In this document: piece after piece, positions 2,630 through 43,636 of the stretch | How the letters are laid out: each line of letters opens with the position of its first letter | How positions within the stretch are numbered: position 1 is the first letter of the stretch | IMG/VR virus record: IMGVR_UViG_3300025423_000009 | Coordinates: 32,001-96,000 of that record | Origin: a virus | Length of the DNA stretch: 64,000 nucleotides | Strand: one strand, 5' to 3' | Notes under the pieces: generated by a model | Database searches by the model: none | Told to the model about the DNA's origin: nothing | Seen by the model: the letters and a program-made list of their open reading frames with translations, nothing else | Translations under genes and position numbers: made by a program

Positions 2630-3451
2630 TTATTTATTCATTGGCTCGACGTCCGAGAGCCAGTGTTTCTTGTTTCCTTCCGTGACCAGAAAGTTAGGAC
2701 CACGCTTGACGATCTGAACGACTTCTCCGCCTTTCAGACGAATCGAGTCGCCAACATTGAAGACCTCGCCACGAACATATGATTCGCGAATCGTGGACAG
2801 CGGACTGAACTGAACGTCTTCGCGAAAAGTGGCAGATTCCTTCAGGCCCATGCGCTTACGAAGAAGATTGAAGAGTCCGATCGCATCCTCGAATCCGTGT
2901 GGCAAACCCTTGGAGAATGAGCGAAGGTCGTTGTCACGAACCGCCTGACGCATCTTGGAGGCCGACATGCCTTCCACTTCATCATCGGAATCCGGATCAC
3001 GATGACCGGCCGAGACCACCTCAATGCCGCCTGGAAAGTCGTAGTATCCATCATTCTTGAGTTTCTGGCCCTCGTACTTCTGCAGAAGCTTCGAGAATTC
3101 CGTGACTCGATCCTGACCAACCACCAAAACAAAGCGAGTGAAGCCATCCTGATAAGCCTTGCAAGCCACATCGAAGAATGTCTTGATAGACTTATCTTCA
3201 ATGATATTTCGAGCATGCTTGGGAAACATCTGCCGCATCACCTTGACCTTCTCGGAGTAGTGAAGAGGATTCTTTGTTGGATCTGTAGATTGAGAAGCGT
3301 AGATCTTATAGGTTCCACCAGCCGCTTCAGAAGCCACCGCGTCAATTAGCTTTTCATGACCTACAGTTGGAGGATTGAAACGTCCAAACGTGACCGTGAT
3401 CTCCTTGACCGTGGCCTCGACAAACTGTCGAAATGATTTTAAGTTTCCCAT
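2630..3451 (-). CDS. Cytidylyltransferase / NMN-adenylyltransferase-like (HxGH) nucleotidyltransferase
   Basis: TFGRFNPPTVGH, VVGQDRV and GMSASKMR motifs. Confidence 0.85.
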   Translation of the reverse strand: MGNLKSFRQFVEATVKEITVTFGRFNPPTVGHEKLIDAVASEAAGGTYKIYASQSTDPTKNPLHYSEKVKVMRQMFPKHARNIIEDKSIKTFFDVACKAYQDGFTRFVLVVGQDRVTEFSKLLQKYEGQKLKNDGYYDFPGGIEVVSAGHRDPDSDDEVEGMSASKMRQAVRDNDLRSFSKGLPHGFEDAIGLFNLLRKRMGLKESATFREDVQFSPLSTIRESYVRGEVFNVGDSIRLKGGEVVQIVKRGPNFLVTEGNKKHWLSDVEPMNK

Positions 3452-7181: not shown

Positions 7182-7777
7182 GCAATCGGAATCAAGTCTC
7201 GAAGGTATCGATACAGTTCGACGGTCTTACGAATGTCGTACGAGGCATCATGTGCCTGAGAGTCGTCCCATCCAAGTTCCGCGCACTTGCATACCGTATT
7301 CAGCTTAAAATTGGGCAGCGCCCCGCGAATCGACTGAACATACCATGCCGCGGCTTGCATGACACAGAGAGCCGGAACCCAGAACCACGAGCCAAAGAAC
7401 TCGTCGTTGTTCTTGCGAAAGAACTCGCGAACGAAGTCCGCATCGAACTGTGCGTTATATCCGACAAAGTGCATCTTATCGGCCTTGTCGAACTTATCAC
7501 AGTGACGACTCAGGAACTCGACGAATAGGCCATAAGCCTGCGTGGCCGACATCGGCCTGGCCATGAGTTCATCGAGAGTAACCTTGCCGAGCTTCAGGGC
7601 TTCTGGATCGGAGGCTAAGACAATGAACGGACAGAACTTCAGATCGATCTTCTCGAGCTCATTGAGATTCGAGTCCGTGATGATGGCGGACAGTTGATGG
7701 ATGTTGTGTGTCTTTCGATCGATGCCATTGGTCTCGACGTCGATGAAGCAGTATTTGTATTGAGGGCGATCTTTCAT
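7178..7777 (-). CDS. DEDDh 3'-5' exonuclease (DnaQ-like)
   Basis: FIDVETNG, GYNAQFD and HDASYDI motifs. Start moved to 7777 because the 7792 start overlaps the tRNA. Confidence 0.9.
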   Translation of the reverse strand: MKDRPQYKYCFIDVETNGIDRKTHNIHQLSAIITDSNLNELEKIDLKFCPFIVLASDPEALKLGKVTLDELMARPMSATQAYGLFVEFLSRHCDKFDKADKMHFVGYNAQFDADFVREFFRKNNDEFFGSWFWVPALCVMQAAAWYVQSIRGALPNFKLNTVCKCAELGWDDSQAHDASYDIRKTVELYRYLRDLIPIA

Positions 7778-7784
7778 TGTAAAT

Positions 7785-7860
7785 TGGAGCATCGGATGGG
7801 ATTCGAACCCACGACCAGCACATTGGAAGTGTGCGACTCTACCAACTGAGTTACCGATGC
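7785..7860 (-). tRNA. tRNA-Gly(TCC)
   Basis: 76-nt cloverleaf: GCATCGG/CCGATGC acceptor, loop CTTCCAA, GTTCGAAT T-loop, U73, encoded CCA. Confidence 0.95.
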
Positions 7861-10116: not shown

Positions 10117-11653
10117 AGAATGTCCAAGCGGCGTAAGTCGAAATAAGACGTACTAGTTCATCATCTTTCAGATTAGCACCGCCTGCAGAATACATATTCA
10201 ATCCACGCTGAAGCTTACGAAGGTTGGCCGTCTGCTTAGACTTACCTTCTTTAAGCACCTTGATCACTCTGAGACGTTCTTCATGAGACAATGAAAGACC
10301 GGACTGAAGCGGAATTTTATTACAGATCTGTTCCATGAACTCGAAAACCTCTTCATCACTGGGATTGATATCCACCAAAAAAGCTCTTGTTCTGATTGCT
10401 CCGTCTGGATCGAGCTTGTCCATGTTCAGGTTCGAGATGAAGATGACCTTGCCCGTGAACTCGAAGTATCGAGGAATCTCACCGGCATCCAGAATCTCTT
10501 CGTCCGAACGGTCGTCGTCCGGATCGACAACATTTGATCCGCGTTTATTCCACACCAGCTTACGAATCTTCTTGGTATCAGTCGCCGCCTTCAGAATGTT
10601 ACGCGCTTCCTGATCCTTCAGCGCGTCATCGGAATCATCGAAGAGAATCACGCCATCCTTGTAGCGAAAGAGCAGAGTGTACAGACCGGCAGGAGAAGCC
10701 GTACCCGTGTTCTTGAAATAACCGTCGCCGTCCTTGAGGCCGAGTTCATGCAGCACTTCCTCGACCGTATGAGTCTTACCAACGCCACCGCGACCGGCAA
10801 TGAAGAGAGCATTCGACGAACCTCCGATCGTCATTTTGATCAAATGGCGCAGATCGGAAAGCTGAGTCTTATATGGTAAGCGCTCGATCAGCTTCTCGGT
10901 CTTGGAATCCGTGGAGTATTGCTCATCGGAAGATCCTCGCGATACGGAGGCACCGGTGCATCCGATTCCGGCCAAGACTTTGGACTTGGCAATGATCAAT
11001 TCACGCACGTCTTCGGCCGTTCCTGCCCATGCAAATGACTGCCCCTTCTTGACGATCAGATTGGGAAATTCCTTGATCAAAGCCGCAAAGATAAGCTCAC
11101 CGGTCTTACGATACTGATCGTAGATCGATCCGGGACCATACTTCTTCAAGTTATTGTCCTTGATCATGGCCACGATGCCGTCATAGGCCGTCTCGGGATG
11201 AACGGACTCGAGGATCAGGCCAGAAGCGACTTTCATGTCCAGCGACTCGTTCAGATCCACCTTGGTCGGAGGAGTGAGAAAGTGACCGGACTTGGTGTCA
11301 CCGGTCAGCACGTCGGCGATGATCGGAAGAGTCTGTGCCAAAGAAAGATTCGAGTCGAACTTGATGTGATACGGCGTCTTGGAATCCAACCAGACGTCCG
11401 CGGACTCGACTCCGGTCAGGCCGATCGAGTTGGCCGCCGACCAATTGATGCGGATCGAGCGATTGCCATCCGGAATGAAGAAACGAATGCCATATCCATG
11501 ACCAGCCACTTCGCTCTTAAACTCTTCTGCTTCAGGAAAATGAAAGAGCTCGGCCTCGAGCTTGCGATGCAGGTACGACTTGATCAGCACGGCCGCCTTG
11601 TGTAGGCCAGCCGGTGAGATGCCTTCAGAGAGGTAGTTTTTGAATGATTTCAT
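10079..11653 (-). CDS. AAA+ ATPase with N-terminal extension, late, probably capsid-targeted
   Basis: Walker A GRGGVGKT, Walker B ILFDDSD, LKAATD, AIRTR; N-terminus MKSFKNYLSE. Confidence 0.85.
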   Translation of the reverse strand: MKSFKNYLSEGISPAGLHKAAVLIKSYLHRKLEAELFHFPEAEEFKSEVAGHGYGIRFFIPDGNRSIRINWSAANSIGLTGVESADVWLDSKTPYHIKFDSNLSLAQTLPIIADVLTGDTKSGHFLTPPTKVDLNESLDMKVASGLILESVHPETAYDGIVAMIKDNNLKKYGPGSIYDQYRKTGELIFAALIKEFPNLIVKKGQSFAWAGTAEDVRELIIAKSKVLAGIGCTGASVSRGSSDEQYSTDSKTEKLIERLPYKTQLSDLRHLIKMTIGGSSNALFIAGRGGVGKTHTVEEVLHELGLKDGDGYFKNTGTASPAGLYTLLFRYKDGVILFDDSDDALKDQEARNILKAATDTKKIRKLVWNKRGSNVVDPDDDRSDEEILDAGEIPRYFEFTGKVIFISNLNMDKLDPDGAIRTRAFLVDINPSDEEVFEFMEQICNKIPLQSGLSLSHEERLRVIKVLKEGKSKQTANLRKLQRGLNMYSAGGANLKDDELVRLISTYAAWTFFIGLAALQFLFY

Positions 11654-23645: not shown

Positions 23646-23749
23646 GGGCGTTTTTGATGGTCGATGAAGTCCTTGATCAGGTATACGATCACGACTAAGT
23701 CGATGATGATTCCATTGATCGTGTAGATGTGTTGCATTGTATGTTGCAT
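23642..23749 (-). CDS. Small membrane protein (35 aa)
   Basis: Read by hand: MQHTMQHIYTINGIIIDLVVIVYLIKDF...; starts 6 nt after the tRNA-Glu CCA. Confidence 0.45.
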   Translation of the reverse strand: MQHTMQHIYTINGIIIDLVVIVYLIKDFIDHQKRP

Positions 23750-23755
23750 TGTAAA

Positions 23756-23830
23756 TGGCGACCCTACCGGGAATCGAACCCGGGCTACCTCCGTGAAAGG
23801 GAGGTGTCCTAACCGCTAGACCATAGGGTC
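23756..23830 (-). tRNA. tRNA-Glu(TTC)
   Basis: GACCCTA/TAGGGTC acceptor, CCTCC-CTTTCAC-GGAGG anticodon arm, GTTCGATT T-loop, CCA. Confidence 0.95.
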
Positions 23831-23836
23831 GATGGA

Positions 23837-24484
23837 TTAGTTATAGTTCTGAGTCTCGTCGTCTCGACACTCACGACAACGCAGAGCGATCCAGTGATTG
23901 GACCTCGACTTCACATCATGATTTGATCCACAGGCCTCGCATGTTCGTGCGGACCAGGACTCGGCCATGGAGATCAAGCCATCCACATATTCGTCCGAGA
24001 CATTCTTGTAGATACGCAGAGTTCCGAACTTCTCCTTGACCTGTTCAAAGGTAACTTGAGGATGAACCTTTCGACCAGAGAGCTCTTGGTAAAATATCCA
24101 TCTGGCGTCCCATCTGTCTTGAAAAGCCACCAGTTTCTTCCATTGACCGTCATATCGAGCATATTCAGGAGAACCATCTACCGGAAAGCTTTGTGGAACT
24201 CCGGCCTTCGTGATGAAGTGCCGATAAGCCCAACGTTCGATGAATCGATTGTAGAAGCGATGCCACTCACGAAATACCCAGTAAGTGATCGGACTATACT
24301 TAGGAACATATTCATCACGATCACAGTGATGTTGAATTTGTGCACAGAGTGTGTCGAGGATGTCATACCATCCGTCGTCACATTCGATTCCCCAGCACAT
24401 ACACGTCTCCGTCATTGGCTTCGACGCGGAGGCAAAGATCTTTGGATACTTGTCGTAAAGGGATTTTTGTTTTTTAGGTGTCAT
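23837..24484 (-). CDS. Conserved phage protein with C-terminal zinc ribbon
   Basis: ECDDGWYDIL...QVKEKFGTLRIY...TCEACG...C..C. Confidence 0.75.
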   Translation of the reverse strand: MTPKKQKSLYDKYPKIFASASKPMTETCMCWGIECDDGWYDILDTLCAQIQHHCDRDEYVPKYSPITYWVFREWHRFYNRFIERWAYRHFITKAGVPQSFPVDGSPEYARYDGQWKKLVAFQDRWDARWIFYQELSGRKVHPQVTFEQVKEKFGTLRIYKNVSDEYVDGLISMAESWSARTCEACGSNHDVKSRSNHWIALRCRECRDDETQNYN

Positions 24485-24498
24485 AATAAAAAAATCGA

Positions 24499-24577
24499 GC
24501 CGAATCGGAGTAAGCCGTTGTCGAGTGACTAGTATCTTACCGGACGGGGCATGGAGCCCCTTGTCCTCCGATTCGGC
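24499..24577 (-). ncRNA. Structured RNA closed by a perfect 12-bp stem, inside the tRNA cluster
   Basis: GCCGAATCGGAG/CTCCGATTCGGC with an internal GGGGC-TCCAT-GCCCC hairpin. Confidence 0.55.
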
Positions 24578-24581
24578 AAAT

Positions 24582-24656
24582 TGGGAGCAGGGGACGGAAT
24601 CGAACCGCCGACCTGGTGGTTATGAGCCACCCGATCTACCACTGATCTACCCTGCA
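24582..24656 (-). tRNA. tRNA-Met(CAT), initiator-like
   Basis: T1xT72 mismatch and A11-T24 pair; loop CTCATAA; CCA. Lacks three consecutive G-C pairs in the anticodon stem and has C73. Confidence 0.85.
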
Positions 24657-24746: not shown

Positions 24747-24823
24747 TGGCGCGAGTGACGGGGCTCGAACCCGTAACCTCTGCCGTGACAGGGCAGCGCT
24801 CTAACCAATTGAGCTACACCCGC
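24747..24823 (-). tRNA. tRNA-Asp(GTC)
   Basis: 77-nt cloverleaf, CTGCC-CTGTCAC-GGCAG anticodon arm, G73, CCA. Confidence 0.95.
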
Positions 24824-24832
24824 TAAATTAAA

Positions 24833-24954
24833 TATCCCGCTGCAAGTGTCCACCGGAATTTTCAGCAGTATTTGCCCACTTGCACTTCGTTCGAGCTTTC
24901 CTCAGCGTATCGCCTAGTATATTCCCGAATCTCGTCCGGCAAAGGAACGGGATA
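24833..24954 (-). ncRNA. ~122-nt multibranched RNA between tRNA-Asp and the tRNA-like RNA
   Basis: Ends pair (ATCCCGTT/AGCGGGAT), stacked on GCAAGTG/CACTTGC, with several internal hairpins; no plausible ORF. Confidence 0.5.
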
Positions 24955-24957
24955 AAT

Positions 24958-25028
24958 TGGAGCGTCGCGGGCGGTTTCCCTGATCGATCAGAGAGGACGT
25001 CCTGTCCAATCGACTTGACCCGCAACGC
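24958..25028 (-). ncRNA. 71-nt tRNA-like RNA with Gly-type acceptor and encoded CCA
   Basis: GCGTTGCGGG/CCCGCGACGC 10-bp stem, then T and CCA; three short internal hairpins; no canonical D, anticodon or T loops. Confidence 0.65.
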
Positions 25029-25036
25029 ATTAAGAT

Positions 25037-25207
25037 TTAGGCCGGACGAGGACGATGGCCACAGATGTATGACTGCTCGAGCAAACTCGGACCCGGCTTG
25101 CCATATCGACTTGCCGACGCGGCCACCTTGGGCTTCTTGGACTTTCGCTTGGCACCGATGTCGACTTCGAGGATCGCAGGTTTATTACGTTTGGAGTTGT
25201 TGTTCAT
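25037..25207 (-). CDS. Small basic protein (56 aa)
   Basis: Read by hand: MNNNSKRNKPAILEVDIGAKRKSKKPK... Confidence 0.5.
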   Translation of the reverse strand: MNNNSKRNKPAILEVDIGAKRKSKKPKVAASASRYGKPGPSLLEQSYICGHRPRPA

Positions 25208-42670: not shown

Positions 42671-43636
42671 TCACGCCTCAATGAGCTTATACTTCTTGCC
42701 ATCAATCTCGATAAGCTTGCCAACACATGAGGATTCAGGCTTCGATTCTTTCTTTGGAGCGGGAACGATGACAAGCTTACCGTAACCCACATCACCAATA
42801 AATGTAGCGCATTGAATCTCATACTTGTCGATCGCGCATTTTTCATATACGTTAATTCCAGCGAAAACCGTCAGGCCAGCATTGATGCCCTCGCCAGCCT
42901 TGATGCCCTCGCCAGCATTGATGCCACAGCCAGCCTCGATGCCCGTGCCAGCCTTGATGCCCCAGCCAGCCTTGATGCCACAGCCAGCCTCGATGCCACA
43001 GCCAACATCGATGCCCCAGCCAGCCTCGATGCCACAGCCAACATCGATGCCCCAGCCAGCATTGATGCCCGTGCCAGCCTTGATGCCCCAGCCAGCATTG
43101 ATGCCACAGCCAGCCTTGATGCCATAGCCAGCCTTGATGCCCCCGCCAGCATTGATGCCCCAGCCAGCATTGATGCCCTCGCCAGCCTCGATGCCCCAGC
43201 CAGCCGTGATGCCCTCGCCGGCATTGATGCCATGGCCAGCATTGATGCCCTCGCCAGCCTTGATGCCCCCGCCAGCATTGATGCCCTCGCCAGCCTTGAT
43301 GCCCTCGCCAGCATTGATGCCATGGCCAGCATTGATGCCCTCGCCAGCCTTGATGCCCCCGCCAGCATTGATGCCCCAGCCAGCATTGATGCCCTCGCCA
43401 GCCTCGATGCCACAGCCAGCCTTGATGCCACAGCCAGCATTGATGCCCCAGCCAGCATTGATGCCACAGCCAGCGCCAAAAACTATGCTTCCGGTACAGC
43501 TTATGCCTTTATGGAAACGAATGACTCCTAGATCATCATCAGACGTAATATGCCCATCGAAGTTTTCAAGATTCTGAGCACCGACATAGAAGTTGTTCTC
43601 GTCAAGGTGACTTTTAGCAATAGCGAATGTTTTCAT
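42671..43636 (-). CDS. Hexapeptide-repeat (GxGIxA)33 beta-solenoid protein
   Basis: 33 tandem repeats; C-terminal GKLIEIDGKKYKL. Confidence 0.8.
   Translation of the reverse strand: MKTFAIAKSHLDENNFYVGAQNLENFDGHITSDDDLGVIRFHKGISCTGSIVFGAGCGINAGWGINAGCGIKAGCGIEAGEGINAGWGINAGGGIKAGEGINAGHGINAGEGIKAGEGINAGGGIKAGEGINAGHGINAGEGITAGWGIEAGEGINAGWGINAGGGIKAGYGIKAGCGINAGWGIKAGTGINAGWGIDVGCGIEAGWGIDVGCGIEAGCGIKAGWGIKAGTGIEAGCGINAGEGIKAGEGINAGLTVFAGINVYEKCAIDKYEIQCATFIGDVGYGKLVIVPAPKKESKPESSCVGKLIEIDGKKYKLIEA
42878..43471 (-). repeat. Tandem array of 33 x 18-bp units (594 bp)
   Basis: Consensus GGC-NNN-GGC-ATC-NAN-GCT; keeps several reading frames open. Confidence 0.92.

Follow-up and report, generated by a model that had tools for sequence, protein, structure and literature searches.

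A CCA-ended 71-nt element resembling a tRNA acceptor end occupies a variable slot in the tRNA array of a T4-like phage

What kind of RNA is encoded at the head of a phage tRNA array by a 71-nt sequence that has the acceptor end of a tRNA and neither an anticodon nor a T loop? The sequence lies in the window, the 64,000-nt stretch of DNA analysed here, which belongs to an IMG/VR virus record of 117,947 bp that has direct terminal repeats. The record is T4-like, with a UvsX that carries a T4-specific C-terminal domain, a gp42-type hydroxymethylase and a dCMP deaminase. The element begins with GCGUUGCGGG and ends with CCCGCGACGC-U-CCA, is intergenic and heads an Asp–Met–(ORF215)–Glu array on the strand of the tRNAs (Table 1). 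The initial annotation of this DNA had read it as an RNA with a glycine-type acceptor end that could be charged and act as a decoy or as a glycine donor, possibly for a DNA-modification operon nearby.

Folding of the 71 nt (RNAfold) yielded one dominant structure of −36.7 kcal/mol (z −4.3) that none of 200 shuffled sequences equalled in stability, and the element is the fifth most stable 75-nt window on both strands of the 118-kb genome. Its GC content of 0.62 is similar to that of the adjoining tRNAs, against 0.49 for the genome. The 10-bp terminal stem with one G–U pair described initially is present and gains an eleventh, U–G, pair, with pair probabilities of 1.0 for pairs 1–10 and 0.85 for U11–G57. 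The three short arms of the initial annotation gave way to a different interior: they reach −26.5 kcal/mol, compared with −36.7 kcal/mol for a single inner hairpin of 10 + 3 bp together with a GAAA hairpin. The inner hairpin comprises a 10-bp helix, a 1-nt bulge on each side, a further 3 bp and an ACGU loop; the small GAAA hairpin is a weak part of the predicted fold. Both self-palindromes that had been reported, AGGACGTCCT and CTGATCGATCAG, were found in the element and fall inside the inner hairpin. As a check for a role at the DNA level we counted the palindrome cores, and neither is over-represented in the window.

Table 1 Features of the element and its surroundings in the window
Feature	Position	Strand	Description
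ORF56	25037..25207	-	Small basic protein; 8 nt between its stop and the element; ATGA overlap of its start with the stop of ORF51
Outer 10-bp perfect inverted repeat, 5′ arm CTCGTCCGGC	25041..25050	-	Within the last ORF56 codons
A/U-rich leader	25029..25036	-	8 nt, from the ORF56 stop to G1; U at position −1
71-nt element	24958..25028	-	Y-shaped RNA; 11-bp terminal helix and single-stranded U-CCA tail
Terminal helix, 5′ strand	25018..25028	-	RNA positions 1–11; begins G1, C2, G3; partner 24962–24972
Inner hairpin	24983..25014	-	RNA positions 15–46; pair probabilities 0.85–1.0
2-bp hairpin with GAAA (GNRA-type) tetraloop	24973..24980	-	RNA positions 49–56; in the MFE structure
Terminal helix, 3′ strand	24962..24972	-	RNA positions 57–67
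Discriminator-like U, then CCA	24958..24961	-	Unpaired in the predicted fold
X122	24833..24957	-	Non-coding block of ~125 nt; first base directly after the CCA of the element
Outer inverted repeat, 3′ arm GCCGGACGAG	24931..24940	-	Within invariant X122
tRNA-Asp(GUC)	24747..24823	-	Next in the array; lacking in L245 and L248
tRNA-Met(CAU)	24582..24656	-	Array member
Y79	24499..24577	-	Second Y-shaped RNA; 12-bp terminal helix, no CCA, covariation in relatives

The resemblance to tRNA comprises an acceptor helix, an unpaired discriminator, an encoded CCA and a place in a tRNA gene array. Run with introns allowed, ARAGORN made no tRNA call on the element whatever the threshold, Rfam returned no family at E ≤ 10 whether 5 kb or 126 nt were searched, and a 7-nt loop is absent from every low-energy fold; a fold forced to contain a 7-bp acceptor and a pseudo-T arm reached −19.2 kcal/mol, compared with −36.7 kcal/mol. 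ARAGORN, Rfam and the fold thus agree with the original description of an acceptor end that lacks an anticodon and a T loop. Several other identities were considered and rejected. The open reading frames that overlap the element (38, 65 and 112 aa) all extend into X122. Across lineages with 50–80% protein identity, X122 is invariant irrespective of codon position, and this speaks against coding. An intrinsic terminator was discarded because CCAAUUUAUCCCG, which follows the element, has no U-tract and a terminator scan was negative there; the real terminators of the phage have U-tracts. An antisense RNA of the C4 type known from P1/P7 was discarded as well: Rfam gave no match, the longest complementarities in the genome (11–13 nt, GATC palindrome) are at about the chance level, and the genome yielded no antisense target above random expectation. 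A whole-genome search showed the element to be single-copy.

A stem followed by CCA is not by itself rare. The genome holds 195 stems of at least 10 bp, nine of which are followed by NCCA, seven of them within one tandem repeat. Among these cases in the genome scan, the element is the only one that is followed by NCCAATTT, is intergenic, and lies in the tRNA array on the tRNA strand. Many spurious stem-and-CCA matches come from an extended run of 18-nt periodic repeats with GCATTGATGCC-type units at about 43059–43450 (plus strand; genome 75059–75450), which is probably a repetitive coding region. A plain scan of all loci for a stem followed by NCCA was given up as a homologue finder, having produced 160 matches, mostly by chance.

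All five phage tRNAs have an encoded CCA followed by A/T-rich sequence, and CCAATTT is common to the element, tRNA-Gly and tRNA-Met. The reported 11-mer junction GCTCCAATTTA is indeed an exact match between the element and the tRNA-Gly at 7785. Reading the ATTTA behind the CCA as a tRNA-type junction is more equivocal: it matches tRNA-Gly exactly, but it is also the conserved 5′ end of X122. A related junction, CCA-(A)TTTAC(A/G)ATG, in which the ATG of the next open reading frame follows a tRNA 3′ end within 7–8 nt, recurs at 7775–7790 and 23746–23758 of the window and in relatives (L246:3119-3135, L247:2254-2270). Just upstream of a tRNA-Met in L246 and L247 stands TATAAATA, the T4 late-promoter consensus. 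No phage-encoded CCA-adding enzyme was found.

The array itself is variable. In L245 and L248, about 19 nt stand in place of tRNA-Asp (L245:2767-2786, L248:1849-1868), within flanking non-coding sequence that is 91–94% identical; on its 5′ side, tRNA-Asp has an ATTTA-ATTTA flank. Judged from such alignments, tRNA genes appear to be gained and lost as discrete cassettes. The tRNA-Glu gene (23759-23827) holds 13 of the roughly 125 differences between this genome and a 99%-identical relative, packed into 75 nt and including an anticodon change (UUC versus CUC); this cluster suggests that one tRNA gene was exchanged, as an allele or a cassette. Between tRNA-Met and tRNA-Glu lies ORF215 (23837-24484, minus strand), a Cys-rich protein of 215 aa that has no match in Pfam, PHROG, NCBIfam or PDB. 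It has relatives at L232–L235 and hundreds in freshwater metagenomes, several within tRNA arrays. SegB of T4 is likewise located inside a tRNA array, and ORF215 may be a homing-type or tRNA-related enzyme.

Homologue searches in related phages, one of the checks named in the initial annotation, detected the element in one lineage only. The sole other contig that carries it, IMGVR_UViG_3300020729_000109, has a 100% identical copy in a genome that is about 1% diverged. Although the two contigs show no differences over 860 nt here, SNP-free runs of 860–1800 nt are common in this pair, coding DNA included, so this identity is uninformative about constraint. Distant-mode blastn against GenBank phages matched only the flanking tRNAs, and an exact-stem pattern in IMG/VR recovered only the near-identical contig. 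A single-sequence covariance model (R1) found no homologue in about 2.6 Mb of loci, comprising IMG/VR relatives of Glf, ORF215 and the BGT/SGNH fusion and metagenome relatives of ORF215; on the whole genome and five whole relative records it returned only the element and its palindromic antisense. Loci reached through neighbours, ORF51 and ORF56 homologues (L329, L330 and L331), all lack the element. Overall, about 2.9 Mb of related DNA contained no homologue, and conservation across related phages was not observed.

The block directly downstream behaves quite differently. Relatives, found by the BGT/SGNH fusion protein and by a conserved 19-mer, showed X122 to be nearly invariant in six lineages (the window, L245, L248, L324, L325 and L331) whose proteins are 50–80% identical; it is 93% identical in L245 and L248. 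The copies outside the window are at L245:2641-2767, L248:1723-1849, L324:~11082-11207, L325:~2940-3066 (minus strand) and L331:2665-2795. X122 has no Rfam match. Because its conservation is far above that of the neighbouring genes, X122 is probably a functional RNA. The homology begins with (A/T)TTTAT, exactly after the CCA.

What lies immediately 5′ of X122 varies between lineages. The window has the 71-nt element there; L245 and L248 have a non-canonical tRNA that ends in GCCA and scores 39.2 and 32.2 bits with the Rfam tRNA model, above the gathering threshold. In L324, the same non-canonical tRNA, without CCA, is followed by an unrelated 63-nt Y-shaped hairpin that abuts X122, is not homologous to the element and has no NCCA. 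The slot holds the end of a protein gene in L325, and in L331 an ORF56 homologue (50% identity) whose stop lies 2 nt away from X122. An ORF56 homologue is present in L330 as well, but with neither the element nor X122; L329 has ORF51 and lacks ORF56, the element and X122. Because this position varies so between lineages, the element is, on comparative sequence evidence, an insertion peculiar to one lineage, in a slot open to tRNA-type cassettes. The occurrence of a tRNA-family gene at exactly this position in relatives bears out the reading of the element as a non-coding, tRNA-end-like RNA in a true tRNA slot. The CCA is more ambiguous. C-(C/T)-A directly precedes X122 in L324, L325 and L331 too, and is found where no tRNA-like gene lies upstream, and the L324 hairpin has no NCCA; the CCA of the element is therefore possibly incidental, and the alignments suggest that it may be shared with, or supplied by, the flank of X122.

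Other members of this RNA island can be traced through the relatives. The non-canonical tRNA family comprises L248:1644-1722, L245:2526-2640, L324:10936-11015 and a copy in the present genome outside the window (genome 16705-16814, minus strand; L335). Its members have a normal acceptor helix and T arm, and an anticodon loop of 8 nt or 6 nt; CCA is encoded in some copies only. L248 and L324 retain the 8-nt loop UAAAYAAU, their stems differing by compensatory changes, and the D loop of the L245 and genome copies is enlarged by a 45-nt insert of two hairpins whose helices covary. Copies of Y79 were found at L246:1618-1685, L247:~567-645 and L248:~2220-2300, and in L324 directly after X122. Its terminal helix, 12–13 bp long, covaries between lineages, encloses a conserved inner GGGGC-UYCAU-GCCCC hairpin and is followed by U/A-rich sequence. 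Because Y79 stands directly 3′ of X122 in L324, X122 and Y79 look like the ancestral core of the island when the loci are compared. Downstream of X122 in L325 are six tandem copies of the 12-nt unit CAAGTCACCGGA, then a second, partial X122 3′ end. ORF56 is a lysine- and arginine-rich protein of 56 aa whose homologues (93, 73 and 72% identity) conserve the N-terminus and a GPSLLEQ motif; ENA, Logan and JGI data contain five homologues at 90–93% identity and one at 72%. X122 comes next to ORF56 in two distant lineages, through the element in the window and directly in L331 (L331:2501-2662), and on this arrangement ORF56 may be a partner of X122.

The sequence, fold, position, strand, non-coding status and variable-slot context of the element are observed, whereas its transcription, two cleavages and whatever function the released RNA may have are inferred. 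The proposal, which we put forward tentatively and at somewhat less than even confidence, is that the element is an acceptor-helix mimic that is cut out by RNase P and RNase E and thereby separates the ORF56 mRNA from X122. In this scheme a non-decoding RNA would sit in the tRNA-cassette slot and copy only the acceptor end of a tRNA, namely a helix of about 11 bp and an unpaired U-CCA. The element has no promoter of its own, starts 8 nt past the ORF56 stop and follows two genes that overlap by ATGA, for which reasons we propose that it would be transcribed along with the ORF51–ORF56 message. Host RNase P would then cut between U−1 and G+1, and just past the CCA the A/U-rich linker would be the target of RNase E or of 3′ exonucleases. 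The upstream mRNA would thereby receive its 3′ end and X122 a free 5′ end, with a stable, CCA-ended 71-nt RNA as a by-product.

Bacterial RNase P, in which the P15 loop pairs with RCCA, is efficient at cutting hairpins that imitate the acceptor/T stack (PMC11143913); natural non-tRNA substrates of the enzyme include the phage P1/P7 C4 RNA, and RNase E normally cuts 1–3 nt past an encoded CCA, within A/U-rich linkers (PMC2190699). The element has the features described for RNase P minihelix substrates (PMC11143913), with an 11-bp helix against about 12 bp in that description, an unpaired U-CCA, G+1 and U−1. Excision is further supported by the stable, GC-rich, tRNA-like composition of the element on the tRNA strand inside the array, and, at the level of the aligned loci, by the recurrence of a structured RNA directly 5′ of X122 in L245, L248 and L324. 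Against it, the T-loop, a normal contact of the RNase P S-domain, is missing from the element. X122 also occurs in L331 and L325, where no counterpart precedes it, and hence does not require the element, and the L324 hairpin without NCCA again signals that the CCA of the element could be incidental.

A plainer, though unlikely, explanation is one in which the element is an ordinary intercistronic mRNA hairpin and its CCA a coincidence derived from the conserved C-(C/T)-A flank of X122. Such a hairpin might stabilise a 3′ end, shield the folding of X122 from ribosomes terminating on ORF56, or form an RNase III-type stalk together with the outer repeat. It would fit the start of the element 8 nt past the ORF56 stop, the near-chance rate genome-wide of stems followed by NCCA, the C-(C/T)-A in the three relatives and the L324 hairpin, which occupies the same place without CCA; it is because of this hairpin and the X122 flank that a structural spacer has to be considered. 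It would also fit the 132-nt region that includes the outer repeat and UAAAU/AUUUA pairing, which folds as one long nested rod of −54.9 kcal/mol (z −3.6). However, the pairing of the outer repeat is not conserved among relatives, and on that comparison the repeat may be lineage-specific or due to chance; nor does the rod offer a continuous helix of about 20 bp for RNase III. A tRNA-style end is likewise more than coincidence, given the exact 11-mer in common with tRNA-Gly and the tRNAs that fill this slot in L245 and L248. Alternatively, one may suppose that the element is the dead remnant of a tRNA cassette, of which the acceptor stem and CCA are left with no present function, as tRNA-family genes in the slot of relatives and the single lineage would allow; we regard this as improbable. 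In its favour there are also faint local resemblances, not significant (p 0.12–0.16), to tRNA-Asp at its D arm and 5′ end and to the 3′ strand of a T-loop/acceptor. Against it, local alignments show no significant similarity to the phage tRNAs or to the slot tRNA of relatives (z ≤ 1.3). As, in addition, an intact copy of that tRNA with covarying helices lies at 16.7 kb in the same genome, the element is not a ruined copy of it. Decay under neutrality would be expected to wear helices down and not to yield helices of 11 bp and 10 bp that rank fifth in stability. The decaying tRNA pseudogene that the initial annotation had allowed for is thus not what the element looks like; it combines an unusually stable non-tRNA fold with no residual tRNA similarity.

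The glycine part of the initial annotation fares less well. In a wider version of that proposal, the element would be a chargeable mimic of the top of a tRNA that GlyRS, and possibly ThrRS, aminoacylates, to serve as a ribosome-independent amino-acid donor for a phage transferase or as a decoy or sponge for host toxins directed at the acceptor end of tRNA. G1–C72, C2–G71, G3–C70, U73 and CCA are all present, and U73, G1–C72 and C2–G71 are bacterial glycine determinants, to which, however, the anticodon bases C35 and C36 also belong (PMC9976931). The element has no anticodon arm, so C35 and C36 are impossible, and the phage's own tRNA-Thr(CGU) carries all three acceptor marks as well. A glycyl-RNA donor is chemically plausible, because Mu Mom, the one known Gly-tRNA-dependent DNA modifier, takes glycine for DNA modification from Gly-tRNAGly and mainly reads the tRNA 3′ end and the amino acid (PMC13219725, Silva et al. 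2026). Glycine is, as stated initially, a substrate of phage amino-acid:DNA transferases; the known enzymes, however, use it as free glycine (PMC8989533). The suggested link to the modification operon found no backing. Mom, DruA and FemAB (PF25680, PF14236, PF02388) are absent from the genome at E ≤ 1 or E ≤ 0.1, at which a divergent enzyme is possible, and no GNAT domain is present in the modification-cassette open reading frames or in the neighbours of the element. Six relatives that have the same cassette (fusion protein 73–81% identical) all lack the element, and conservation stops at one lineage. The idea of a glycine donor is not supported, and we consider a chargeable mimic very unlikely. 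Its more specific form, a ribosome-invisible acceptor-end mimic charged by a host synthetase through its Gly/Thr marks, which would be a private donor for an unrecognised DNA or glycan transferase or else a toxin sponge, seems to us scarcely probable.

If the element is excised as proposed, a bare acceptor-helix mimic would act as phage punctuation between an mRNA and a conserved small RNA, a punctuation without a T arm or an anticodon arm. The CCA-ended non-tRNAs of phage tRNA clusters, a little-studied group whose oldest examples are T4 RnaC and RnaD, would gain a branched member of 71 nt. The larger value of the element is that it marks the edge of an RNA island with three conserved, undescribed RNAs: near-invariant X122, Y79 with its covarying terminal helix, and the non-canonical tRNA with its 8-nt anticodon loop or D-loop insert. 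These adjoining conserved RNAs are more promising than the element itself.

Among known systems, T4 RnaC and RnaD (species 1 and 2), the function of which is still unknown (PMC9697503), are like the element in being structured non-tRNA RNAs on the tRNA strand of a T4-type tRNA cluster. They, too, have tRNA-like ends, as the annotated rnaD end lies within the encoded GCGCACCA and rnaC has a T-arm-like hairpin. They differ in that they measure 119–139 nt and are conserved among T-even phages, whereas the element has 71 nt, no T arm and one lineage; R1 finds nothing in L163, the rnaC and rnaD locus, and the folds differ. The C4 RNA of P1/P7 offers a likeness in working, being a phage hairpin that is released by RNase P from a longer transcript and resembles the acceptor end of a pre-tRNA (PMC2190699); cleavage of the element by RNase P is, unlike that of C4, only predicted, and neither an Rfam match nor an antisense target beyond chance ties the two together. 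Synthetic minihelices are model substrates of RNase P, the CCA-adding enzyme and some synthetases. Built from the acceptor and T stems, they present a discriminator and CCA on an unbroken helix of about 12 bp (PMC11143913, PMC9976931), much like the 11 bp of the element, in which, however, a 45-nt two-hairpin insert replaces the 7-nt T-loop, and which is a natural gene and not a design. With Gly-tRNAGly, the donor for Mu Mom, and with the staphylococcal non-proteinogenic tRNA-Gly, the element has the glycine marks of the acceptor stem in common, but these donors are complete tRNAs whose anticodon is also read and which serve an identifiable transferase, and the element has neither an anticodon nor such an enzyme. 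While belonging to none of these families, the element resembles RnaC/RnaD, the RNase P hairpins and the minihelices in working.
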